From Amoebidium appalachense (Eukaryota > Protista > Ichthyosporea): DNA of 64,000 bases. Every line of letters starts with the position of its first letter. Positions within the stretch are counted from its first letter, which is position 1. The notes beneath the pieces were generated by a model. The model was not told the origin of the DNA. It did not search any database and saw nothing but the letters and a program-made list of their open reading frames with translations. The position numbers and the translations under genes are program-made. The stretch spans positions 5,142,472-5,206,471 of the forward strand of contig CAVNZM010000003.1 of assembly GCA_963693365.1 (NCBI GenBank), given 5' to 3'. Positions 4,419 through 64,000 of the stretch are shown here, in pieces.

Positions 4419-23992
<19,574 letters not shown>

Positions 23993-32792: not shown

Positions 32793-33856
32793 TTATTTGT
32801 TGGTCTTGAAGTACTCAAGCAGCACATCGACAGCGGGCGAGTGCACACCATAGTCCTTGACAACCACGCAGCTGCAGTTGCGCACCTTGCGAGGGTTGCC
32901 CTCCTTGTCAATCTTGCACAGACCGACCCACTCACCGAGCTTCTTGCCATCATCAACCTGCATGTTCAATGAAGAAAGAGGGGAAAGAAGAAAAGGAGTG
33001 AAGATAGGGGAAAGACGAAAAGGAAAGGGGGGTTGGGGGGGGGGGAGAGGGAAAGGTTAGCAGTTGTAAAGCGGCTGGAGTAGCAAAGAACAGGTGTAGG
33101 TGTAGTGCTCAGTGGTATTATTTGATTCCGGAATGCGCATTTCCTCAGGATTCAGAAGAGGGAGCGCACATTCATCAAAGCACAAAACCAAAACAAATGC
33201 ACAAAACCAAAACAAATGGAAGAGTCCAACTGATCAACCCAAGGTTTTGAACGTCGTGCCATCGCGCGCAGCCAGCAATAAACATGGCATATTTCAAAGA
33301 CAATGACCGAGAGAAGGGGGAAAAACGTACCTGGATGAGGTTGATCTTGTGCTCAGCGCAGAGGGCCTCCACCAGCTGAACGTAGGCGGGCTCGTCGCAG
33401 CTGGACGACAGAACGCAGAGGTGGGCCTGCGCAGAGAACATAGGTAAATAACAGACCCAGGATAGACGGAACAAAGGATACCATAAGATTGTACAGGTCA
33501 TTCTTACTTTTTGGCTGTTGAGTACGGTTCTCAGCATGGATATGCTAAGACTGGGGCGACTCCATTAATCTTTCCCGTACATGTATTCAAAGGCATGCCC
33601 TAACGGGCAAACAAACCAACAAAACTCGTGAGAGGATGTGCTTTTAAGAATGTGGAAAGATGGAATGCTGAGTCATCATTACCTGGCGGCGATCCAGAGC
33701 CTTGGCACCCTCATGGAGACCACGGGCAAGACCGTCGTGGGCGAGGGCGTTCTTGAGGACCACCTGGAGGGCGGTCATGACGTCCATCTTCTCCGTCTCA
33801 ACCACCACGGGGGCGGGGGCGGGAGCCGCGGCAACTTCTTCACCTTCGCCAGACAT
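32793..33856 (-). CDS. RPS12: 40S ribosomal protein S12 (eS12), 144 aa; coding exons 33856-33683, 33426-33331, 32957-32793
   Basis: [41 protein letters not shown]...[40 protein letters not shown]...[10 protein letters not shown]; phase-0 GT-AG introns. Confidence 0.97.
33105..33183 (-). ncRNA. Box C/D snoRNA, SNORD100-like, in the last RPS12 intron
   Basis: Minus strand: GTGC terminal stem, box C TGATGA, guide GCTCCCTCTT + box D' CTGA, box C' TGAGGA, box D CTGA, GCAC. The guide is antisense to the conserved 18S stretch GGAGAGGGAGC. Confidence 0.85.
33522..33580 (-). ncRNA. Possible degenerate C/D snoRNA (SNORD31/snR67-like guide) in an RPS12 intron
   Basis: Minus strand: terminal stem GTACGG/CCGTAC; guide GTCGCCCCAGT antisense to LSU rRNA ACTGGGGCGG, followed by D'-like CTTA; box D CTGA. 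Box C is degenerate (AAGATTA). Confidence 0.4.
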
Positions 33857-37395: not shown

Positions 37396-38790
37396 GGCGC
37401 ATACGTGAATTTTTTACAAATCGTCATGTTGTTCTTCAGATGCCCATTGTGGTCTTCGGGCCCCGGGCCCATCGGGCGAATCCCTGGCAAGCACCAAAAT
37501 CGGATTATCCCAACAAATATACCGGAATCTGCTACATCTCCACTGCAGAACACCTCGAGTTTCTCAACAAGTATACCGGCATTTAAGTCCCTATGCACGT
37601 TGAAAAGCAAAAGCAACACGTCAAATCAGGTAAAAAAGCGACGCTCCCGATTGGGCCATCCACCCACCCGCCCAGGGATGGCGCAAATTCAAAATTTCGT
37701 ATCGGAGGCGACAGTATTGTACCGTACAGAATCCCTTCTCCTGATACTAGATCAAGACGAGGGCCGGGAGGAATATTACCGTTTTTTGCGCCGGGAATAC
37801 AACGAAGAGATTTTCCTTTTCTGGCAGTCGGTCGACACCATGCACCAGGCGCACTCCCCTAACCAGCTCATCCGATTGGCTCGCTTGTGTTTTGAACGTT
37901 TTCTTCGCCCGGGCGCCGAGATGGAATTAAACCCAGCCCTCGTGGTTCACCATCTCCAACATATACGACAACTCCCAATACTCGCGCCGGAAAACGCACG
38001 GACGGACGATTCCGATTGGTCTGCGGAGGAGGTGGAAGAGATGAAAACAGCCTTGTTTGGTGCACAGAGCGACGTGCTCGATATCATGTCAGTCGACATT
38101 CTCCCCCGCTTTGTCCGCTCGTCGTGTTTTGCCACGTTCGTCCGACGGGTTTCCGGTTCCGGTTCGTGGTGTTCCGCCTTGGGACACCACAGCTTCTCGG
38201 AATTCACCAATCAGAATTCATCGGCGACGTCTTCGGATTCAACGATTGGTAGTTGGATGCGAAGCAGCAAAAGCAGCCCCGCATTCCCCGGCCTCCCCTC
38301 CCACCGCCTTCCCCCCTGCGCGTGGTTGCAACTTCTCGTGGGGGTGAGCGATGTGTTCCCATTTCCTTTTTTGGTTATTGAGAACACCACGGATCGTCCA
38401 ATCGAAGCGCGCGAACAGTCATGCAGCCAATCGTTTTGCGACACCGATTTCCCCATCATTTTCAGCAACGAGGCGTTTTCCGAATGGCAAAAATCCGGTG
38501 ATTTCCAACCCTGGCAGTCGGTTCTGTCGTTATGGGGTGTTGGCGAGTCGCAGACGAGGAAGCGGGTGTCGAGTTGTCTGCAAGCAGGGTGTGAAACTAC
38601 GGAAATTGTGTCGAAACCTCGGGAAAATGGAAATTCCGGTGAATATGCCATGATTCTCAGGCCGGTGTTTGTTGGGAAAGCGTGTCCGTTTTACGTGGGT
38701 TTTGTGTTCGAAACGAAGGGAAGACACGCTGTGTACCTGGCCGGCCTGGAGACACTTATGGGGCATCTACCAATGGCGTTGCTTGTTTAA
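37396..38790 (+). CDS. RGS-domain protein with a C-terminal PAS/LOV-like domain (main exon; start uncertain, exon 35977-36072 splices in frame)
   Basis: RGS signature ILDQDEGREEYYRFLRREYNEEIFLFW...CFERFLRPGAEMELN...AQSDVLDIMSVDILPRFVRS; PAS-like DFPIIFSNEAF...RENG...MILRPVF...FYVGF; acceptor CTACAG at 37395. Confidence 0.8.
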   Translation, partial: GAYVNFLQIVMLFFRCPLWSSGPGPIGRIPGKHQNRIIPTNIPESATSPLQNTSSFSTSIPAFKSLCTLKSKSNTSNQVKKRRSRLGHPPTRPGMAQIQNFVSEATVLYRTESLLLILDQDEGREEYYRFLRREYNEEIFLFWQSVDTMHQAHSPNQLIRLARLCFERFLRPGAEMELNPALVVHHLQHIRQLPILAPENARTDDSDWSAEEVEEMKTALFGAQSDVLDIMSVDILPRFVRSSCFATFVRRVSGSGSWCSALGHHSFSEFTNQNSSATSSDSTIGSWMRSSKSSPAFPGLPSHRLPPCAWLQLLVGVSDVFPFPFLVIENTTDRPIEAREQSCSQSFCDTDFPIIFSNEAFSEWQKSGDFQPWQSVLSLWGVGESQTRKRVSSCLQAGCETTEIVSKPRENGNSGEYAMILRPVFVGKACPFYVGFVFETKGRHAVYLAGLETLMGHLPMALLV

Positions 38791-39802
38791 ACTTTTAACG
38801 TAAGTTTTAATATGCTTTTTAAGTGCTGTACCTGTAAATATAGAACAACTATATATGGTTCAGTAACACACACATATGGTGTTAATCCCATACATTATGT
38901 GTGACTGAACACTTTTTGCGACAGTTTTTCTCCTCAGAAACGCAGCACGTGTTTTTGTGTTTCATTCCGTAATTTCTGTAAATATTTCCGGTTACACGTG
39001 TCTGTATGTTACGCGCGCCAGTCTGTGAATACTGGTTTTTTTCCCGATGAGACTGACGTGGTTTTTATCATTTGTGCAAAAAAATCACACATAACCCAAC
39101 ATTTTCTCAAAACATAGTGATTGAAACCCGTTTCCACTCGTGTTTGTCTGGGGATGTCCTTTGATGAATTGACTGCTTGTGTTAATCACCATTCATTTTT
39201 CATTACAAGGTATTTTCCCGGCAGAATTAATATATATATGCGCGAAAGTTACTATGAATTTTTGCTATGGAAGAAAGAAAGCAATACACAATTTCTTGAT
39301 GTGGCGTTTATGCCTTAAACTTCTGGCTCTTAGCAAAGTTTCCGGTAAATTGTCCAATGATTATGCCCATATTATCTGTAGGCCAATCGAGCCGATCTCT
39401 ATTCAATCTATTCAGTACAACATGATTAATAGAAGAAAACCATGAAAACCTGAGCCTTCATCCACTACAAACCATCAATGCCCCTCCCTCCCTCCCTCCC
39501 CTCCCTCCCCCCCCCCCCCCTTCTTTATATATTCATATCCCCCCCCCTCCCCCCCCCCCAATCACCACCACCACCCACTCCCTAGTCCCACCCCTTTCTC
39601 CTTTCTGTCCTTCCCCTCCTGCACCGCCCACTTTCCGGATCCCTTCACACTTCTTTTTGCTACCCCGTAAACCCCCCTCAACTCTCTTACCCCATATCAT
39701 ATCATGATGCCCCTCTTATCTTTCTCTCGTTCTCCCCTCTCACCTTCCCCCCTCCCCCCCCCTTCTCTTTCCCTCTCTGTGTCTCTTTCTCTCTGTCTCT
39801 TC

Positions 39803-39840
<38 letters not shown>

Positions 39841-40429
39841 ATCCTCCCCATTTTTTTCTGAGGCCTACCCAAGTCCCCACCTTCCCGAACACTTTCCCGA
39901 TCTCTCTTACTCACCACCTATCCCATTCCCCCAAACCCCAACCCGGGCCAGTTATGTGATCACACCCGTCCCTATTTAGCCCCAAGAATCATACTTAGTC
40001 AGTATTCATTGTCTCCTGGACCACTCCAGCCCCACACCGTTTGTCCCATGATTCGGATCCAGCCCTCCTTCCCCACCTTTCCCCCCCTTCCTGCCCTGCC
40101 CCCCCCCCCCCCCCCCCTCCCCCTCTCCCCCCTCCCCCCCCCCCCCCCCCCCCCTCCCCCCCCCCCCCGGGAATCCCGTCGCCGCTGCCGCCACTGCCCT
40201 TCTTCGCCGTTCCCTCCCGTCCAATCCCCTCTCTGTTTCTTCAGTCGTTCCCCTGCATATCCAATTTTGGTCATCTCACCCCCGCATGTCACCTAGCCTC
40301 CTTCAACTCACCCCCCCCCCCCTCCCCCCCCCCCCCCCTCTCTCCCCACCCTCTCTCTTCCCTCCCCCCCCCCCCCCCCTCCCCCTTTGCCGATTTGACT
40401 TTAAATTTGCTGTTGTTCTCAAATCTGCT

Positions 40430-40710
40430 AGCCTCAAAAGGAATTAATGGGGGATCAATTTCGATTCTGGTTTTTGCTCAAGCGATCACAGCAACCTGTG
40501 CAATCCAGATGTATTTGTATAAGATGTATCTGGTTGTAAAAGGCACAGAAAGAATGTAAGTTATGAGATATGTGTGGCTTATTCCACACACACACACCAC
40601 AAGCACGCGCTCACACGTACACACACACATACACGTACACACAAACGTGCACGTCACACACACACACACCGTCACACACACACACACACACCGTCACACA
40701 CACACGCACA

Positions 40711-40784
<74 letters not shown>

Positions 40785-41082
40785 CTCGCATGGAAACATG
40801 CTTATATCATCATGTCACTGAGTATAAGAACACACGTACATACACACATGCACATGCATAACACGCAGGCACACCATGGGCCACATGTGTGCCGACACAT
40901 ACACACAAAAAAATACGCTCACAGTAACACACAAATGATACAGGACTGCTGAAAACTGCATACATTTACACACGCACCGTCGAAGTGCACTCTCTGTCTT
41001 TTTTTGCTGCCCACTCCCAGTTACTATGCCCCTAGACCCTAAGGCCCCTATCTAAAGACGCCTGTATGGAATATACCCCCCC

Positions 41083-41115
<33 letters not shown>

Positions 41116-43450
41116 TTATTTCTCCCATCCCTCACCCACTTTCCCCCCGATTCTCAACCATCCTTTTTTTCTGTTCTACACCCCCGCCCCACCACCACCA
41201 CCGCCGCCGCCACCAACACCACCTTTCTACACACTCTCTCCTTTTCTCCATCTCTCCCTCTTCTGCCCTTTCTCTTTCTCTCTCTCGGGTCCCCCCCCCT
41301 CCCCCCCTCTCTCCAGCCCCAACCCCCCCCCCCGTCCCCAATCCTTCTATTAATCCCCAAATATGTTTAAATATTTTCCCCTCTTCCTCTCCCACAACCA
41401 TCCCACCCCTCCCGGTAACCGACACCCATTAGCACCCCCTCCCCCTCTTCCCCCCTCCCCCCCCCTCCCCCCTCCCCCCCCTTTTCCTTTCCTCCCCCCC
41501 CTCCCCCCCCCCCCCTTCTCCCCCCGGCCACCCGCTAAGTCATCCTTTTTTTTTCCATGCAGCCCATATGATTCCCTCCCATGCCATCCCACTCCCCAAC
41601 CATCTTTTTCTCACAACCGCCTTTTCTCCCTTTTATATTAATATTTTTATCACCCATTTGAGACCCAAAGATATCGCCAGGCTATCATGTCTTCCATTTG
41701 AATCTGCCAACACCCTTAGGCAGGTTGATAAACCTATATCAGAGTCTCAATATAACTATACATTCTTACTAACGGTAAGTATAAGTTTTCTCCCAGCCTA
41801 TGAGGACCCAACCACATCGGCAGAGTCAACTTGCAAAAGGCAGGATTGTTCTGCAAAAGCAGAATCACTCTGCTTTTAGCAGAATTATTCTGCTTTAAGC
41901 AAAATTATTTATTCCGCAAAAAGCAGACTGCTTTCAACAACAGAATAATTCTGCTTTTAGCAGAGAATGGTTCTGCTTTTTGCAGATTGATTCTGATTTT
42001 AGCAGATTGATCCTGCTTTTGCAGAATAATTTTCCTTTTAGCAGAATGATTCTGCTTTTTGCAGAAAACTTATGCTTTTGCAGAATAATTCTACGCTCTA
42101 CAGAATAATTCTGCTTTTTGCAGAATAATTCTTCTCGGAGCAAGTTGACTCAGCCGATGTGGTTGGGCCCTCCTATGGTCCTCAGCTCTCCGAGTCCTTC
42201 CCTTGAACTCTCCCTCCACCTCCCTCCCGCCAACCCCCTTTTACCCCTATGCTCTCCCCCCCTCCCCCGAAACACACACACACGCACACACACACACACA
42301 CACACACACCCCTACACACACACAATCACATCCACACTTACACACACACACACTTTCTTGTGCAACACAAATGCCTCCTCCTCCTATTAGCCCCCCCCCC
42401 CCCCCCCCCCCCCCCCCCTTGCCTACCTTCCCCTTCCTTCCCTTTCAGAGTCCACCCACCCCTTCCACCTTCACCGTCATCCCCTTCACCATGGCCACCC
42501 TCCTTTCCTTTGTATTCTAAAAAAATCAACTTTTTTCCTCCTCTATCCAGGCAGTCATTTTCCGCACTCCTATCAACTCACCCCCCCGACCACACAACAA
42601 ATCCATCCCCCCTCCCCTCCCCCCCCCCCCTTTTCTCCCTCTCCGCCCCTGCACCTCCCCACACACAACACCTCCTCCCCACCCTCAACCCCCCTCCCCC
42701 CCCCCCCTCCCCCCCTCCCCCCCCCCCTCCCCTCCTCCCCCCCCCTCCCTCCCCCCCCCCTCCTCCCCAATACTTTCATCAAAAATAAATCCAACAACAA
42801 CACCCACAACCACAATAATAGCGAGTCATTATTAATATCACAATGTCATTATGATACTGCAAATGATGAGTACTATGTGATAATACTATATGTTGTTTCT
42901 CAAATATTAAAGGGCGCATCTTTAAGGGAAATGGGGGGACGGGCCAGACCCGAAAGCGTTTCACGGTATGTGATTGACGTGATGTGCATCAAACAGTATT
43001 CTGACCCTGACCCGAAAGGGCATATAAATCGGCCTTAAAGATGCATTATTTACGAACAACCGCAATGAAACATAGTACTACTACAAGTAATAACTCCAAT
43101 GCCATAAAAAGAGTAATACCAAGATTAACATTACTAAACAATGCAGGCCTCAAGCACCTATTCTGGCTGTAGCAGCATGGCTGGTTACTACACGCAAGCT
43201 ATGTGGGCAAAAACAATGCGTGTGGGGTGTGGTTACAACGCAAAACCAAAAATCCACTGTGTGCAACTACTATTCCACCGGAAATATCCAGGCCTAGGGA
43301 AATTGATATGTGGCAAATTACGGACCCCTCCTGTCGCGATTGTGCAAGTTTCTGGGGGGATGCAACAACTTGCACTGACGATGGGCTCTGCTTCGATGGA
43401 TCCGTAGCTGATGGTGAAAAATCCCCCCTCCCCCCCCCGCCCCCTCTACA
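40430..43450 (+). pseudogene. CAP/SCP/PR-1 family gene fragments (copy 1), frameshifted
   Basis: 43147-43400 reads GYYTQAMWAKTMRVGCGY, then in other frames STVCNYYSTGN and CRDC...TTCTDDGLCF. Weaker upstream CAP-like pieces lie near 40460 (FAQAITATC) and 41750 (ESQYNY). Confidence 0.6.
41802..42172. mobile_element. Non-autonomous DNA transposon (MITE), Sola2-like, filled with a palindromic minisatellite
   Basis: 33-bp TIRs GAGGACCCAACCACATCGGCAGAGTCAACTTGC / GCAAGTTGACTCAGCCGATGTGGTTGGGCCCTC (2 mismatches); 4-bp TSD CTAT (41798-41801, 42173-42176); GAG...CTC termini; internal about 20-bp units GCAGAATAATTCTGCTTTT. Confidence 0.85.
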
Positions 43451-43754
43451 ACCTCCGGCCCCTCCCCTTTCCCCCCAGTTTCAAGCTATTCGATATTGGA
43501 AATGTAATAATTATGATCTTTACTAAACACGGCTCACCAGCATTTCTGTTATTGCTAACGTTACTGTCATGGTCACGGTTTCATCATGAATCTAAGTTAC
43601 CAAATGAAAGGTTTTAATAATTTTAAATCTGCATATTGGCACCATGTGTCGTATTTGATGGGGGTTTGCAGTGGTGTTTTCTCTTTTCCTCCAACTACCC
43701 CCCCTCCCTCCCTCCCTCCCCCTTCCCCCTCCCCTCCCCCCCTCCCCCCGGCCC

Positions 43755-43861
43755 CCCCTTGACGATGGGCTCTGCTTCGCATGCATGCCTTTTTTGTGTG
43801 GTTTGCAGTCTGCACTGTGTTGTCTTGAATGTGTACTCCATACACTGCAGCACATGCTGAT
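43755..43861 (+). mobile_element. Diverged copy of the poly(C)-anchored element
   Basis: GATGGGCTCTGCTT...ATGCATGCCTTTTTGTGTGGTTTGCAGTCTGCACTGTGTTGTC aligns with 18102-18163; C-runs on both sides. Confidence 0.7.
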
Positions 43862-44589
43862 CCCCCCCCCCCCCCCCCCTCTCCCCCCCCTCCTCCCCCC
43901 CCCACCCCCCCCCCCCCCCTCCTCCCCCCCCCCCCCCCCCCCCCCCCCCCCACCCTCGTCCCAACCACCCTCCCCCCCATCCCCTTCCCTTTTATGGAAG
44001 GTACGAAAAAAAGGGAGACGCCATAAAGATAAAACTTGATTTTAAATTCCTCAGAGATCAAATGCCAAACGGGGAAAGACCTATCCACCACTTTTAAATT
44101 CATCCGGCTCGCTTATGGTTGGTACCTCATAACCATTGGGAGCCCATTTACCCTTCTCCTTTACCGCAAGGCAAAACACGACCCTCCCTCGATCTTCCCC
44201 CCTGCTCCCATCGTTCTCACTCCCCTCCCCCCCCCCCTCCCCACCCCTTCCTACCCCCCCCCCCCCCCCCCCCCCCCCGCAAACCCCCAACCCGCCAACG
44301 GTTGTTGCATATCCTGTGTGTACGGTTTGGAATGTACCCCCCCCCCCCCCCCCTCCCTCCCACCCCAATCCCCCCCCCCCCCTCCCTCCACCCCAATCCC
44401 CCCCCCCCCCCTCCCCTCCACCCCAATCCCCCCCCCCCCCCCCCCCCAAAAAAAAAAAAAAAAAAAAAGTGACGGGGGTATGGAATATGGGGGGGGGTGG
44501 GGGTGGGGTGGGGGGGGGGGGAGGGGGGTTGCTGAAAAATTAATTATCAAGATCAGCAACTCCACCACACTGTCCAACAATCCGCACCC

Positions 44590-45364
44590 CCGTGCTCATA
44601 CCATCTATCCTAAATTCCTACAAGAATCAGCAATTTTCGCCGCCAATCTCTCCTCGATTTCCACAACGAAGAACGCCGTAGGGTCTACGGAGCAAAAACG
44701 ATGAAACTGGGGTGGGATGAGGGGTTGGAATGCCAGGCTCTGAAGGGGGTTTATGCAGCAGTCAGTTGTATGGACCCCCCTCCCCCCATTCCCCTCCCCC
44801 CTCCCCCCTCCCCCCCTTGACCACTCAGGGAAAGTTTCCCCCCCTCCTCCCTCCCACCCCCCCACCCCTCCAAAAAAAAATTACCTTTGTGCATTGTTAT
44901 TGTGTAAAATTGTGTGACATTACCACCCTTGGTGCATGCATTGCAAGATTTGCTTTGTGTTGTCTGTCGTGAATCGTTTACGTCATTATCATTAGTGTAA
45001 AAGCATTCTGACCACTCCCCCCCCCCCCCCCTCCCCCCCCCCCCCCCCTCCCCCCCCCCCCCCCCCGCCCGGCTTGAACGGGCAGGTGAAATGGAGCCCT
45101 CGGAAAAAAGAATGTGCTCTGCTTACTTTGCATAATATGTGGTGTTTTCGGTTTTTTCTTTTATCATGTTTGCTGTCCTGTTGTGTGCCGTGCCGATCAG
45201 GGTGTGTGGAATTGTAGAACGATCTCTACCCTCCACCCTCCCCATTCCCCGGGGCGCAGACACCCACCCACCCATACTAGAAGGCCGTGTGTGCTTGCAA
45301 AATGTGTTGTATGAGTATAATGAAAATGTATATCCCCCTCCCTCCCCCCCCCCCCCCCCCTCCC

Positions 45365-45399
<35 letters not shown>

Positions 45400-47120
45400 G
45401 CCCCCAGTGTACACCTCTTCCTCCCTGTCCTTGCTGCCCCCCCCCCCTCCCCCTCCCCCTCCCACCCCTATACAAACCCCCCCCCCCCCCCCCCCCTGTC
45501 CCCTCCCCCCCCCCCCCCCCCCCCCCCTCCCCTCTTCATGTGTGCATTGAAATCTGCATTGTGTTGTCCCTCGTGAGTGTTTACACTTCGTACTTTGTAA
45601 CAAAATTCTAACCCTCCCTCCCCCTCCCAACCCCTTCCCTCCCACCCCCACCCCTTCGTCACCCCTTCTCCCATTCCCTTCCCATCCCCCCCTTCTCCTC
45701 CTCCTTTCCCCCCCCCCCCTTCCCCCCCCCCTCCCCCCCTCCCCCCCCCCCCCCCCCCCCCCCCCCTTTCTTTCTTTTCCTTCGGTTTACCAAACAGTGA
45801 ATACTTCCATAGACTGCAAGACCTTTCTAGAACCCTTCGAGCTGCCCCCTCCACTATGGGTCTATGCCGAGGGATATGTCTATGGGGCATCGGACTATAA
45901 ATTGCAGGTATGTGTCATACTCTCTTTCCCCCCCCCCCCCCCCCCCCCCCCGTTTCCCCCTTTTCCTACCCCCCTCCCTCCATCCTCCGCCCCTTCCCAG
46001 GAATGTGTGTGTGTGTGTAGGTTGGGAGCGGGGGGGGGGGGGGGGGTAGTCTTCCATGATATGTGCATTGCTGCAGGGTTACTGTGCAAACACAAGTTAT
46101 CTCCAAAAACTAATTCTAGTCTCGTACGGGTATAATTTAAATTCCTAACACTAACCCACACAATCGCCAAGTCGAGTCGCATCCTACATTCCTAACACGG
46201 CCCAGACCCGCAGTCATTTACTGGTGTATCCTAAAAACCTAACTCTGCACCCACACCCAGGCCCCAAAGTACAACGGATGCTCTCAAAAGAAGTGTTCAT
46301 GACTAAAAACGGCACAGGATTAAGTAACTCCCCCCCCCCCCCCCCCCCCCACCTTCCCTCCCCCCCCCCCCCCCCCTCAATCCCCCACCTTTACCACCAT
46401 CACCACATACAACACAAAAAGAGGCAAATTCCACCCCCTTCCACCGGTTTCTAGATCTGGGCCCACGTCATTCAAAACCAAAGTTTAAGACAATACATAT
46501 GAGCATATCTACACAGATAGGGGCGAATCATTGATACAGATAGGCGCATATCTACACGGATAGATGCGGGGATATCTGCACAGCTAGATATAGGCATAAT
46601 CATACAGGTAAACGGCATATACATGGTACCTGATATGCACACGTGCAACTAGCTCAATCCAGTGATTACTATGGAGCTAAATCCATGATATGGTACGAAT
46701 ACTTGCAGGTTTGTTGACAAACCACCTCCTTCTCTACTCCAAGCACGGATACATTACATGCACACATATCAACTCACACATACCGGCACACACACGGGCG
46801 CACCCACGCATACCTATTCGTACGATATAAGTGCGGTGTCCTAAACTAACCCTTCATCCACCTACTCATTTTTTGTGGCTATCCCTCTCCCCCCATCTCC
46901 CCCCCTCCCCCCCCCCCCTCCCCACAACTCCACCCCCCACCCCCCGAACCCCCGAAACCCCCTTCCCCTTCCCTCCGCCTCCCGCCCCTTCCTCCCTCTC
47001 CCCTCATTCCACAAACCCCTTCCTTCAACTTTCCGAAGTGCCAACACACATACATACTTTCAGAAACACAACCACACTAGCACACAGTGTATTACACACA
47101 CACACACACACCCACACACA

Positions 47121-47154
<34 letters not shown>

Positions 47155-48309
47155 AACACACACACACACAAACACACACACACGCAAACACACACACACA
47201 CGTGTGCAATTACACACACACACACACACACATACCCTCCCTCCCCCCCCCCCCTCCCCCCCTCCCTCCCTCTCTCTATTCTTTTGCACACACACACGCA
47301 CACACTCCCGCCCACACACACCCCACACCCATACACATACGCACACCCACACCCACTCACCCCCCTCCCCCCCCTCCCCACACACACACACACACCATAT
47401 CAGGCACTTGCCTTTCCGAGACACTTCGACCCCTGACCCACTATCGCTCAATCATCAACTCCGGAACGAAACTCATCGGTTGCTCTCCGGAGGGTTTTGA
47501 AGCAAATGACGGAAGCAGAATCACAGCCACAGCGTGTGCATACTCCCCCCCACCTTCCAAAATTGGAAGTATCTCAGATCCAAATTTCCTAGCCATTACC
47601 GAATATGGAAAGCCTTGCAGCAAGTGTCCGGCTGGAACAACGTGTGATCCCTCCCCGTGTGTACATCGTGAATGGGTCGAAGCCCGCGTACTGTGGATGA
47701 TTTGGGCATGCCCCTAACAACGTGTTCTATTTCTGATGCATATTCTGGCAAGATTTTGCAGATGATCTGATTTATGTTGTTCATCGTGAATGTGTAACCC
47801 CGTATTCTGTAACACATTCTAACCCTCCCAGCCCCCCCTCTCCCCCCTCTGTACCCCCCCCCCCCCTCCCCCCCGCCCTCCCCCCACCCCCCCCCCCCCC
47901 CCCCCCCCCCCCTTTCCCCCCCGTCTCCTCCCCTCCCCCTCCCCCTCCTCCTCCCACTCCAGCCTTATCTTCAAGGCAGGCTGCCTATGGGTAGACAGGG
48001 TTGTAGAAATTGATTACGTCATCTCTCACCAATTGGCCAATCAGAACCTCTCGTTAAAGTGTAATACCGACTTTGCCAATCGCCACACCTCAACCAAATT
48101 AAACTAGGCATTGGTTTATGTTGAACTTGTATGAAAAAATTACGGTAATGGCACGCCTTGTTTTGTCCTACACCATAAATGTTAAGAGACACCTAGATTT
48201 GAGCACACACACTGGAGCAACACATACTAGACCACACACTAACATGTTACACATCACTTGGTACCTGCATTCAATCATCAAACAAACATATCCCCCCCCC
48301 CCCCCCCCC

Positions 48310-48345
<36 letters not shown>

Positions 48346-48604
48346 CCCCTCCTTCCAACCATCCCCTCCCCCCCCCCCCCCCCTCCACCCTCCCTCCTAA
48401 TAACCAAACCCCCTTCCCCCCCCCCCCCCTCCCCCCCCCCTCCTCCCCCCTATTCCCCCCCCCCCCTTTCTTCCTTCCCCCCTCCCCCCCCCCCCTCCCC
48501 CCCATCTCCTAGGTCTGTCCACTTGCGTTTCTTTCATCTTTGAATCTATGCCAGCCCCTTCCCTGTATCCCCCCCCCCCCCCCCCCCCCCCCCCATTTCC
48601 CCCC

Positions 48605-48640
<36 letters not shown>

Positions 48641-49293
48641 ACACACACACACCACCACCACCACCACACACACACACCTCCGGGCCACTCCTGCTACAGT
48701 ACGGTACATACATTTTTTGCTCTGCAAACTGAATTTCTTGTTTTGTCCGTCGTGAACGTGTATTTCCTACTCTGTAACACATTCTAAACTCCCCCCCCCC
48801 CCCCCCCTCCCCTCCCCCCTCCCACCCTCCCCTCCCCCTCCCCCCCTCCCCCCCCTCCCCGCCCCTCCCCCCCCCCCCCCCCCCCCCCCCGTTTCTCCAC
48901 AAGCTCTCTCGAGGACTGGCCTGCATATGCGGCTGTTCTATTTTCCTTCTTCTTCTTTGCTTTTTCCCTCCTTTTTCGGCATCTTTCCATAACCTGCCTG
49001 TGTTTCAAGGCTTAGTCTTATCTTTTTCCCTCGTATCGTCTATATATAAATCGGTCCCAATACCTCCCCCTCTCCCCCCCCCCCCCCCCCCCCCCCCTTA
49101 ACTCACCCTTACCATATACAGCAATCATGCATAGGACTATCCCGGGAGTAGACAACTCAGCCCACCCTTCCCCGTCACCTCCACCACCCACCACAATTAC
49201 GGCCCCAATTTCCACCACAACAAAAATTTCCTTCACAACCCCAAATCCGACCACCACCACAACCCAAATTTCAACCCAAACCCCGCCGGGCTA
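44590..49293 (+). pseudogene. CAP/SCP family gene (copy 2), multi-exon, with a stop and a frameshift; possible Thr/Pro-rich terminal exon at about 49135-49293
   Basis: RRQSLLDFHNEERRRVYGAKTMKL (about 44637-44709); exon 45798-45907; DALKRSVHD* (46277-46306); THYRSIINSGTKLIGC...TACAYSPP...GKPCSKCPAGTTCD (47404-47655). Confidence 0.6.
47666..47823 (+). mobile_element. Diverged copy of the poly(C)-anchored element just after a probable CAP exon donor; related ends at about 44930-45015, 45085-45130, 45540-45612 and 48715-48788
   Basis: GTGAATGGGTCGAAGCCCGCGTACTGTGGATGA matches 18052-18085; ends ACATTCTAA then C-run. Most of the other pieces share TCGTGA...ATTCT(A/G)A then a C-run; 45085-45130 matches the GGGCTCTGCTT region. 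Confidence 0.7.
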
Positions 49294-50883
49294 AAACATC
49301 AACTTCTTCAGCTCTCTCATCTCAGCAGGCAGTTAAAACCCCCCTTGAAATTTCATCGTCATCGGTGCCACTTACGAGCACACAGGTGGTCACTGTGGTA
49401 GAGATAACACCAACAAGCACACAGATCAAGACGGAAGGTATTCACCAGTATACAGCTTGAGCCGGCATTTCTAATATGGTAGGCCCGGTAGCAAGCGGCA
49501 ACATGGGCACATTTAGGTGATGCGCTCACGCCCAATCGCTTTACTCAAATCTGTCCACTAAAAGCTTAGAAGCTGCTTTTAACACATTTGATTGGCTTCA
49601 AACCGTTTTACCCCCTTTGAAGACAAGCAATCAAGGCCAAAAACAGTAGACTGTCCAACTTCAACTTAGTAAACGCCGACACCAGACTCGTGATTTAGGG
49701 TTTACAAGGTGATCTCTATGACAAACCTTTTCTCTCAATTTCGGGACGCTGTGCAACTCCTTTTCCATAGCACAAACAATCAAAGATTAGTTATAGTATT
49801 GAAGTTTTCCGAAAATAAAGAGTTTATGCGCTATCGAAGTTTTTTGTAAGCTGAAAAATTATAAACCTGATTCAAAGCTAGTTCTGTTGACTTACACTAC
49901 TCCGCATAAGTTCATGCAACATGCGTGATAATCTACGAATAACAAATCGCCATGTCTCGTGAGAACCAGCATGCTTAACGGTTTGTTATCTTTTTTTATA
50001 TAGAACCGTTAGAAACTTCGCCTGCTGACAAATGGATATTTCAAATCAACTTATAACGCGCTTTTTGTTAGCTGCTCTCTATTTCATTTCTCGTTTGTCA
50101 GTAATTTTTTCCCCAAAGAACGTGCTTGGCATGCTGCTAAATTTTAGCACTGGATATCAGAGTCATGGAGCCAATCACAAGCGGGTCTGCCACGAGATAC
50201 TTTCGGCAGCCGGCATATCGGCGTGGCTCAGGAATGCAATTCCTAGATTGAGTTTAATCCAATCACTCGAATTCACAACTTACCATATTAGAACTGCCTT
50301 AGCCTCCTGATATACCCCCCCTCCTCCCCCCTCCCCCCTCTCTCTCTCCTTCGTCTCACTCCCCTATCTCTCCTCTCCCCCCCCACCCCCCCCCCCCCCC
50401 ACCCTCCCACTATGTATCTCTTTCTCTGTTCTATCTTTCTCTCTCTGTTCTGTCTTTCTCTCGGGAACTCTCCCCCCTCCCTCCCCTCCCTATCTGTCTC
50501 TTTCTCCAGTCACTCTCACACATTCTCTCTTTCTCTTTTTCTGCTTGCGTGTGTGGTTGTGTCGTTGACGGTGCGTGGATAATGTGTATTAGTATGGGAA
50601 ATTCAACATCGTGGGGCAGATAAGCATATATGTGCCAGCAAGGAGGACCGTTAACAAACAGCAAGAGCACAACTTATGATCTCTAACCAATCACTGTGAC
50701 CGTACAGGCAACAATGGCCAATCGGAATCCTCCGATGCAGCCAATAGGAACCCAGGATCTTCTGCCGCGTCCGTGCCATGTTCCTTATTTCGAGCGGTAG
50801 TGTGCGCGGTTTGTGTATTGTTTTATCTGCTTTGTTCGTAGTGCCTGTGGCAAAAGACCTGGTGATAGAATCTGATGTGTGTA

Positions 50884-56414: not shown

Positions 56415-56556
56415 CGATGGGCTCCGTTTATGATACATACTCTCTTTGTATGAGTTTTTTAGTTATAATCTGCATTTTTTTGGTCGGTTTTGTCCGTAGT
56501 AATGAGCACGAACTCGTACTTGCACTCTGCAGGATGTGTGTGCATCACATTCTAAC
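56415..56556 (+). mobile_element. Diverged copy of the poly(C)-anchored element 3' end
   Basis: GATGGGCTCCGTTTATGATACATACTCTCTTTGTATG aligns with 18102-18138; ends CACATTCTAACCCCC. Confidence 0.6.
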
Positions 56557-56848: not shown

Positions 56849-56973
56849 CTGCGGCTCAGCTGCTGCTGGCGTGACCGCAGACGGAGGGCGATCATGCACG
56901 GCCCTCTGAAAAAAAGAGGGCCGTGCATGATCGCCCTCCGTCTGCGGTCACGCCAGCAGCAGCTGAGCCGCAG
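56849..56973. repeat. Perfect inverted repeat with 59-bp arms and a 7-nt loop
   Basis: 56849-56907 is the exact reverse complement of 56915-56973. Confidence 0.95.
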
Positions 56974-58404: not shown

Positions 58405-59442
58405 ATGGAGGAAACACAAAACACACCGACTGTTAGAAAGCCCAAGCGGGCAGCAGTCTTGGGAGGGGGTGCTTTCGGCACAGCCATTGCACAACTGCTT
58501 GCACGGCAAGGTGCAAAAGTGCTTATGTACATGAGAGAGGAACAGGCCTGCAAACGCATGAATGAGACGCATGAAAACTCGACTTACCTTCCCGACGTGA
58601 AGCTCAGCGAAAACATAATCGCAACCACCGATGTTCAGGCTGCATTGACTGGGTGTGATATCATTATGGGCGTAATTCCGACCCCATTCTTCCGGAAATT
58701 CGTCGTCGACAACTACAAGCACTTCCCTGTGAATGTCCCCATTATCGTTTGCTCGAAGGGGATTGAGAAGGGGACACACGACACCCCGTACGAAATGCTT
58801 CGTGATGAGCTTCCAGGAAAGTACTCAAACTATCTAGGCTGCCTTTCGGGGCCGTCCTTTGCCAAGGAGCTTGCTCTCGGTCTTCCCACAAGCGTAACAG
58901 TAGCCTCACCGAACAAGGCAGTGGCAGCTCTCACACAGGAATACCTGAGTGACAAAACTTTCCGAGTCTACACAAGCACAGATGTTATCGGGTGTGAGTA
59001 CGCGGGTGCACTGAAAAACGTGCTTGCTATCGCTTGCGGTGCAAGTGAAGGGGCGGGGTTGGGGTATGGTTCGCGCGCTGCGCTCATCACGCGTGGCCTG
59101 GCGGAAATGGGACGGTTTTTGGAGAAGAAGGGAGGCGACTTGAGAACTTTGACATCGTTGGCCGGTGTAGGAGACCTGACGCTCACATGCACGGCAACCA
59201 TGTCGCGAAATTACACGGTGGGGGTCCGACTTGCAAAAGGGGAGACTATGGAGCAGATCAAAGCATCGACAAATTCAGTCGCCGAGGGGGTTTTTACAGC
59301 GCTGAGCATCCATGAGATGAGGCAGAAAACCGGGATAGATATGCCCTTGTGTGAGGCCGTGTATAAGATCATCTACGAGGGGGTGTCCTTTGACCAAGCT
59401 CTCCGTGACCTTCAGGCCCGGCCTCTTACGAGGGAATGGTAG
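58405..59442 (+). CDS. gpsA: NAD(P)H-dependent glycerol-3-phosphate dehydrogenase, bacterial GpsA-type, intronless, 345 aa
   Basis: VLGGGAFGTA (Rossmann fold), CSKGIE, LSGPSFAKE, GALKNVLAIACG, LAGVGDLTLTC, SRNYTVG, VAEGV. Confidence 0.93.
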   Translation: MEETQNTPTVRKPKRAAVLGGGAFGTAIAQLLARQGAKVLMYMREEQACKRMNETHENSTYLPDVKLSENIIATTDVQAALTGCDIIMGVIPTPFFRKFVVDNYKHFPVNVPIIVCSKGIEKGTHDTPYEMLRDELPGKYSNYLGCLSGPSFAKELALGLPTSVTVASPNKAVAALTQEYLSDKTFRVYTSTDVIGCEYAGALKNVLAIACGASEGAGLGYGSRAALITRGLAEMGRFLEKKGGDLRTLTSLAGVGDLTLTCTATMSRNYTVGVRLAKGETMEQIKASTNSVAEGVFTALSIHEMRQKTGIDMPLCEAVYKIIYEGVSFDQALRDLQARPLTREW

Positions 59443-62972: not shown

Positions 62973-63359
62973 TTAGTACCGATCGTACCGATCCAACCGA
63001 TCACGCGATGCACCGAGCCTAAGCCTCTCCACCCTATCATACTCCCTTTCCCTCTCCATCAATCTGTCCCTATCAGCCAGCCCATACCTATCGCGAATAT
63101 CACGAAAATCACGGATCCCCCAAATGTCTCTCCCTCCATACCCACCCAGATCCCCCCCACGCGAATAAGTAGATGCAGGGAGATAGCGATCACCTGCTCT
63201 CCCCCGATCATCCCTTAGAACCCCACGATCTCTGTCGGCTCCGAATCGGGGAAGATAATCGCGATCGTACAGACTCCCCCCGATTGAGGAATAGCGATCG
63301 CGATCACGGTCACTGCGCAGGGAGGCGGGTGGAAGGGATGGCTGGCCGGCAAATTTGTC
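62973..63359 (-). CDS. Last exon of a gene encoding an Arg/Asp/Gly/Tyr-rich low-complexity C-terminus; upstream exons lie beyond the window
   Basis: Acceptor CTGCAG at 63365-63360, then 128 codons DKFAGQPSLPP...DRDRDRY...RDRLDRYDRY*. Confidence 0.65.
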   Translation of the reverse strand, partial: DKFAGQPSLPPASLRSDRDRDRYSSIGGSLYDRDYLPRFGADRDRGVLRDDRGRAGDRYLPASTYSRGGDLGGYGGRDIWGIRDFRDIRDRYGLADRDRLMEREREYDRVERLRLGASRDRLDRYDRY

Positions 63360-63703: not shown

Positions 63704-63734
63704 GAGGGGGGAGGGGGGGGGGGGGGGGGGGGGG

Positions 63735-64000
63735 TTTTGAATGCGTCAAAAAGTACGAAGTACACAAGAACAAACGGATAACACGATGCAGAATGCAAGC
63801 CATACATAAAGAGTATGCATAATAAGCAGAGCCCATCCTCAGGGGGGGCCCACGTCATCCACAGTACCCGAGTTTCGACCTATTCCCCTCGTTAACGAAA
63901 CCCAACTCAGATACTGTTTCACTTGAACATGAGTAGGTCACCCGTCTTGATCAGAGACGAGCAGGGTTGCTTATGCAGGCAAGGGCAGTGGGAAAGGCCG
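63735..64000 (-). mobile_element. Poly(C)-anchored element, subfamily 2, long copy running off the window edge, in the intron of the minus-strand gene
   Basis: Reverse complement matches 18036-18203 and, further 5', 14975-15060; G-run at 63690-63734 is the poly(C) on the element strand. Confidence 0.85.

Follow-up and report, generated by a model that had tools for sequence, protein, structure and literature searches.

Sense-oriented intronic copies of a probable Chlamys-type element in Amoebidium appalachense and a possible role of transcription in their insertion

Why do the intronic copies of a short repeat in the ichthyosporean Amoebidium appalachense all lie in the sense of their host transcripts? 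We have followed this question in a window of 64,000 nucleotides (positions 5,142,472 to 5,206,471 of contig CAVNZM010000003.1, assembly GCA_963693365.1), which is intron-rich and full of C-runs, G-runs and microsatellites. All orientation counts given here come from this 64-kb window alone, with four host genes. Intronic retroelements are usually neutral in orientation or, through selection, antisense-biased, and a near-complete sense rule, if true, would suggest that the strand is chosen when the element inserts. We consider that the sense bias was set at insertion by transcription and that the repeat is a non-autonomous Penelope-like element of the Chlamys type, a combined reading to which we give a probability of about 45%.

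Profile searches revealed 15 copies of the element in the window, 14 on the plus strand and 1 on the minus strand. With a profile made from eight copies, nhmmer recovered 14 copies with E<0.01, 13 of them on the plus strand and 1 on the minus strand, and the best match in the reversed window, which served as a control, had an E of 0.89; a wider profile added one short plus-strand match, at 43373. An anchored scan took in 149 plus-strand and 88 minus-strand C-runs, and among the 88 an element 3' end was found at 63734 only. The copies have a common 3' end that is followed by a C-run (13 of the 16 listed copies), their left flanks are mostly C-rich and their 5' ends vary. Pairwise identity ranges from 52 to 99%, so that most copies represent separate insertion events. 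Two young subfamilies, A (copies starting at 388, 1789, 14613 and 14815) and B (18037 and 63735), can be told apart from several old ones.

The host exon boundaries were modelled by hand. On the plus strand, the first gene contains two truncated copies of subfamily A, one at 388-564 with C-runs on both sides (intron 278-933, whose junction reads in frame) and one at 1789-1928, in intron 1776-2379, which splices in frame. The BRE1-like RING gene (4419-23991, plus strand, 23 modelled exons, of which the final ones encode the RING finger) holds plus-strand copies in four introns: an old internal fragment without a C-run at its end (8544-8607, intron 7509-8850); an old diverged copy followed by a C-run (13351-13560) and a short weak fragment (13713-13742, E 0.005-0.006), both in intron 13198-13883; a truncated copy (14613-14808) just upstream of a full-length unit of about 430 nt (14815-15243), both of subfamily A and in intron 14002-15334; and a truncated copy of subfamily B (18037-18204, intron 17847-18397). 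The first gene and BRE1 have 25 introns between them, of which 24 begin with GT and 1 with GC, and every one ends with AG; 18 of the 22 BRE1 junctions are in frame, including those of all four introns with copies; the other four reflect either hand-set boundaries or sequence errors. The GC-AG intron of BRE1 (8970-10092, plus strand) splices in frame. Inside BRE1 introns there are also exon ends duplicated together with their splice sites (7690-8000, 10690-10975 and 18620-18780, plus strand), possibly decoy or alternative splice sites, and an intron-containing tRNA-Tyr(GTA) in sense orientation (20653-20737, plus strand), which is called Leu if introns are disallowed.

The CAP-like gene was modelled by eye, and no transcript-derived protein was found for it, which is weak evidence. 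Its region carries old plus-strand copies: one between two CAP-like coding regions (43750-43860), a 3' fragment in a putative intron of the second CAP-like gene (45535-45611), a copy abutting a CAP-like exon (47656-47823), which lies either at an intron start or where an exon end reads into the copy, and a 3' fragment downstream of a CAP-like exon (48700-48788). Weaker candidate copies occur at 44890-45015 and 45080-45228 in the second CAP-like gene. Another old plus-strand copy (56416-56555) lies between two plus-strand genes, outside modelled introns; the copies not in modelled introns number two, both plus. A stretch of CAP-like coding sequence at 43373-43400 (plus strand) has an exact run of 20 nt in common with the element copy at 43760; the run includes an intact CTGANGA, encodes the domain end 'DDGLC', and may stem from exonisation of an element fragment or from local conversion, or be due to chance. 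Elsewhere in the window, there are an intronless glycerol-3-phosphate dehydrogenase (58405-59442; best named match Sphaeroforma arctica, 57%), a perfect inverted repeat between two plus-strand genes (56849-56973, arms of 59 bp, loop of 7 nt), and a candidate C/D snoRNA (33105-33188, minus strand; Rfam snoR30, E 0.005, under the gathering score) in sense orientation within an intron of a ribosomal protein gene on the minus strand, and we take this gene to be S12-like.

The sole minus-strand copy (63735-64000, subfamily B) is cut by the window end, and its C-run extends downwards from 63734. The last coding exon of an RRM gene is found beside it on the same strand (62973-63359): positions 62976-63359 encode residues 291-418 of a transcript-derived RRM protein of 418 residues (P0124) with 100% identity, followed by a stop, and residues 1-290 were not found within the window. 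Accordingly, this copy lies in the last intron of the gene, in sense. The original prediction that every intronic copy is sense to its host transcript, on the minus strand as well as on the plus strand, was thus borne out.

As for the nature of the element, contigs of four sequencing runs were aligned to 14822-15240. Three DNA runs gave 3676, 4122 and 4595 contigs, and a run guessed to be RNA, which may be DNA, gave 209. The summed depth on the element was mostly 0.1-1.8 million and that on long single contigs 10-110, which would correspond to an abundance in the order of 10^4 copies, although depth is no true copy number. In 4 of the 12 junctions listed with letters, the 3' end runs through C-rich letters back to 14822 or 14835, equivalent to the start at 14815; other listed junctions restart inside the unit, at 14905, 15092, 15113 and 15185. 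This recurrent head-to-tail return, together with the internal restarts, indicates a unit of about 430 nt that is frequently truncated. The copy at 14613-14808 stands directly before the full unit in the manner of a pseudo-LTR, 5'-truncated and 99% identical to it, and the two probably arose in a single insertion event. Among the 15 joints listed, of 20, all keep the strand, many of them via C-rich letters, and no inverted truncated copy, of the kind often present at the 5' end of Chlamys and Naiad elements, occurs there or in the window.

On the one hand, these features agree with those of Chlamys and Naiad elements: frequent 5' truncation with a common 3' end, partial tandems in which a truncated copy precedes a full one, units joined head to tail, a (C)n or (CA)n target (the C-run here may be target or tail), and no canonical hammerhead of types I-III, for which Rfam Hammerhead_1 gave only a partial match (E 1.6). 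On the other hand, no partner with an N-terminal GIY-YIG nuclease and a Penelope-like reverse transcriptase was found, and the X-read frame of the 5' part matched 0 of 1.84 billion proteins. Pfam gave no match above its cut-off in the element frames, and neither Rfam nor ARAGORN gave a match on the element that would represent a SINE head derived from tRNA, 5S or 7SL RNA. Since a coding partner and a Pol III-type head were both not found, Chlamys membership is likely but short of proven, and we regard the element as probably a non-autonomous Penelope-like element of the Chlamys type. Several other identities were considered and set aside. A LINE whose 5' part is the end of an open reading frame with a zinc knuckle was dropped for the stops in the frames and the empty Pfam and protein searches. 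The head derived from a Pol III RNA that a SINE should carry was not seen in Rfam or ARAGORN. The known C/D and H/ACA families of snoRNAs, or retroposons of them, were unmatched (best E 3.7-6.3, far under the gathering scores), and the element ends are not the splice sites of a host intron, as they would be in an Introner. Searches of viral contigs and metagenome contigs with element patterns gave 0 matches.

A family of host intronic non-coding RNAs, such as snoRNA-like or splicing elements, would be held in sense by its function, and the copies are indeed sense, intronic and structured, with compensatory changes. We find this scarcely credible, given the thousands of contigs, the nested truncations, the C-run ends, the tandem junctions and the lack of any Rfam family near its gathering score.

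The orientation pattern was picked after inspection, and the single flip in the minus-strand gene alone separates 'sense' from 'plus'. The odds of about 1 in 2000 that were attached to it proved too strong. Corrected for the local shares of C-runs and G-runs, P comes to 9e-4 if each of the 14 intronic copies is counted, 0.002 if the tandem pair is taken as one, 0.006 at one copy per intron and 0.13 at one per gene. The BRE1 copies at 14613 and 14815 would be one insertion, and those of the CAP region are forced by their targets. In terms of sense-strand clusters of at least 10, the ratio of C to G is 6:3 in the first gene, 29:41 in BRE1, 20:1 in the CAP region and 1:1 in the RRM intron. The remark that both kinds of run are common on the sense strand is accordingly right for BRE1 and wrong for the CAP region, whose copies are explained by targets alone and say little. 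The plus-strand skew of C over G is strong at 38000-50000, around the frameshifted CAP-like pieces and unlike BRE1, with 41 C against 2 G clusters at 40-52 kb.

The direction of a copy is that of its C-run, and in these genes sense C-runs alone are occupied. Over all regions, 9 of 81 sense targets hold a copy against 0 of 60 antisense targets (p 0.006), and leaving out the CAP region gives 7/56 against 0/59 (Fisher p 0.005). In BRE1 alone the figures are 4/47 and 0/55 (p 0.04, runs of at least 6), and the p value weakens to 0.06-0.07 with runs of at least 8 or at least 10. A link to donor sites, which had been read from two copies starting within about 15 nt of one, is unsupported. The copy at 1789 does begin 13 nt past a strong donor (score 11.5). 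However, the copy given as starting at 47666 reaches back to 47656-47659, so that the putative donor GT at 47657 lies at the element's own edge, and the score of this donor is 5.4, where the median is 8.5. One of 13 copies starts within 15 nt of a donor, where one is expected (chance P about 0.24); distances to the next acceptor are 91-1297 nt, and no copy starts at a donor or ends at an acceptor. Taken together, the orientation is real in this window, and its significance was overstated.

Transcription-linked insertion is likely the best reading of the bias. A separate partner would supply the nuclease and the reverse transcriptase. The nuclease would nick the G-run strand, where the C-ending element RNA would pair and prime copying, and through this pairing the direction of the copy would follow that of the C-run. 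For a sense copy, the nicked G-strand would be the template strand of the host gene, and transcription would favour targets of this kind. We consider the weakest step to be that non-template G-runs in transcribed introns would be tied up and make poor targets, which would leave the sense C-runs. A G-run on the non-template strand takes part in R-loops and quadruplexes while its gene is being transcribed.

The excess can also be read without transcription, as the outcome of C-run direction, nested landing in old tails, loss of inverted neighbours or a regional preference such as one linked to replication; in a window rich in plus-strand genes, such effects would mimic a sense rule. The C-run surplus of the CAP region, the P of 0.13 at one copy per gene with a single minus-strand gene that has a copy, the two plus-strand copies outside introns and the strand-keeping, often C-rich joints all fit this account. 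In BRE1, however, antisense targets outnumber sense ones and none is occupied, and its copies belong to subfamilies that are 54-70% alike, which makes them poor substrates for inverted-repeat loss. Also, the flip occurred in the minus-strand gene even though C clusters outnumber G clusters by 8 to 2 on the plus strand at 60-64 kb. We hold that C-run direction, neighbourhood and a regional strand preference by themselves are unlikely to account for the pattern. Transcription-coupled insertion, which had been put forward originally, gains from the occupancy without the CAP region and from this flip, and it is weakened by the small basis of four genes; with these and a single flip only, local co-orientation stays the main rival.

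A different explanation is that insertion is blind to transcription and that antisense copies were purged later, their A-rich strand and leading G-run harming splicing or elongation. The sense strand of the element is T-rich (T 0.30-0.40, A 0.14-0.23), host introns lean likewise (T 0.257, A 0.186), and selection does make an orientation bias in mouse introns, although there it is antisense and milder, with 32.6-41.7% of insertions in sense in the data consulted from that study (PMC3446317). However, AATAAA and ATTAAA are absent from both strands of 10 copies, donor and acceptor scores are not consistently higher on the antisense strand, long microsatellites and G-runs are tolerated in host introns, and the sense orientation is as complete in young copies (98-99% alike) as in old ones. 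With no strand asymmetry of splice or poly(A) signals, and with the mouse biases being partial and antisense, selection becomes less likely, and we think it improbable as the main cause. The present data do not separate insertion bias from later selection.

The original prediction had also offered the release of element RNA from host pre-mRNA, and this idea gains some structural support from a hammerhead-like motif on the sense strand. A descriptor that covered all six hammerhead block orders, relaxed after the sequence had been viewed, assembled in the SGC order alone, in each of the three intact copies that cover this stretch (0-1 of 1000 shuffles reached it); antisense strands gave no assembly with the same descriptor, nor did the diverged copy at 13351, which spans the region. 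The core letters are intact in subfamilies A and B. In the full-length unit, the putative core occupies 15050-15134 on the plus strand (S 15050-15063, G 15089-15102, C 15121-15134) with a predicted cut at 15059/15060, and in the minus-strand copy 63833-63908, with a predicted cut between 63904 and 63903. The motif has CUGANGA, GAAA and UH in S-G-C order, a stem I of 3-4 bp, a stem III of 9-10 bp with two-sided changes between the subfamilies, and an extra U after A9. Stem II has only 2 bp, is not a stable, covarying helix as in type-SGC hammerheads, and both of its strands have better partners elsewhere; we therefore class the motif as hammerhead-like.

The named helices are paired in 86.7% of 158 cells and 6 pairs changed on both sides, values that 15 of 500 shuffles reached. 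The covariation score was not beyond shuffles (67/500), with most helices covered by 2-4 sequences, and in folding, the element as a whole did not surpass shuffled sequences (z -0.88 and 0.07). Of the 12 truncated copies, three start near the predicted cut, at -1 (18037), +6 (388) and +7 (47656) (P 0.001-0.017), nine start away from it, and the summed contig depth shows no step there. We regard cleavage of its own RNA by this predicted motif as possible but somewhat less likely than not. An HDV-like ribozyme was considered by eye and set aside, with the required partner of its first helix sitting downstream. Likewise, 33 metagenome loci with a gapped hammerhead pattern were attributed to chance: none matches the element profile at E<=1, none has both stems, stem III reaches at most 7 (4 of them forced by the pattern), and stem I is at least 3 in 2 of 33. 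Both subfamilies have palindromic hairpin loops at 15000-15076 (plus strand; TGATCA, and TATATA in one against GTTAAC in the other), as dimerisation loops do.

If release from pre-mRNA were the cause of the bias, only sense copies would persist or re-insert locally. The sense-strand motif, the three starts near its predicted cut and the 209 contigs of the putative RNA run speak for this idea. However, most of the truncated copies start elsewhere, most lack the core, and mobility of their own cannot be what preserves decayed copies; nor would release explain the sense lie of truncated copies only 55-70% alike. The nearest relatives, 18037 and 63735 (98% identical), lie in different genes 45 kb apart, which indicates that spread is not local. 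As a cause, release is therefore very unlikely; it may be a source of element RNA, but dead copies cannot owe their orientation to it. In combination with transcription-linked insertion, a rewired hammerhead, as predicted for the sense copies, would excise element RNA from host pre-mRNA, and this would be a promoter-free RNA source, a consequence of the bias rather than its cause. A complete promoter-free cycle, with insertion almost solely into the template strand of transcribed introns and excision by an SGC-order hammerhead, seems to us a rather unlikely extension. If true, host transcription would both aim the insertion and supply the RNA, in a close relative of animals.

A near-complete sense rule would also provide a countable handle on a poorly understood step of Penelope transposition, with some 10^4 copies, symmetric C-runs and G-runs as a built-in control, and several strains in public runs. 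If genome-wide orientation tracks C-run availability, the element will be an ordinary abundant repeat. If our reading is true, Chlamys-like elements extend to a lineage related to animals, and it can be tested whether rewired hammerheads occur in elements that are described as having none.

Among known systems, Introners are repeats that have been found sense to host transcripts, and each makes up an entire intron, splice sites included. In contrast, the copies described here lie within introns, and none of their ends serves as a splice site. Literature searches at the level of listings and abstract beginnings showed no sense bias for Penelope-like elements or others of a similar kind, and the parts covered of an ichthyosporean genome paper (PMC11244446) do not describe the repeat. 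In the mouse study, as far as consulted (PMC3446317), the orientation of intronic retroelements to the host gene is likewise non-random; that bias is antisense, partial (33-42% sense) and put down to selection, while ours is sense and complete in a small sample. Natural type-SGC hammerheads cleave, according to the portions consulted of PMC10085705, and the element has their block order of site, GAAA and CUGANGA, with stems I and III formed. Unlike them, its motif has a stem II of 2 bp, the extra U, competing pairings for both strands and a linker between stem I and stem II of about 25 nt instead of 3, and it is predicted only, within a genomic repeat. The hammerheads of Penelope pseudo-LTRs have the same extra nucleotide, but in the sections seen of PMC4209133 they are of type I (C-G-S) with a helix II of 6-8 bp in metazoans, and the order in the element is non-circular.

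The closest likeness is to the Chlamys elements, from which ours differs in its ichthyosporean host and in that no autonomous partner was found for it. The main text of the paper that describes them (Craig et al., PMC8557442) does not contain the word 'Ichthyosporea', and the orientation of these elements to host genes is undiscussed there and in the main text of PMC9977147, which mentions orientation for other elements only. In the parts of PMC8557442 consulted, Chlamys elements have (C)n targets, 5' truncation and partial tandems, and their non-autonomous forms occur head-to-tail; in those of PMC9977147, de novo insertions in Chlamydomonas were all intronic, with a median of 128 bp, on (C)n. 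The element resembles the non-autonomous forms, MRC1 and Chlamys-N4_cRei as presented there, in its (C)n target, its short, 5'-truncated intronic insertions, its truncated copy before a full one, its head-to-tail copies and its non-coding sequence without a canonical hammerhead. We conclude that it likely works like a non-autonomous Chlamys element.
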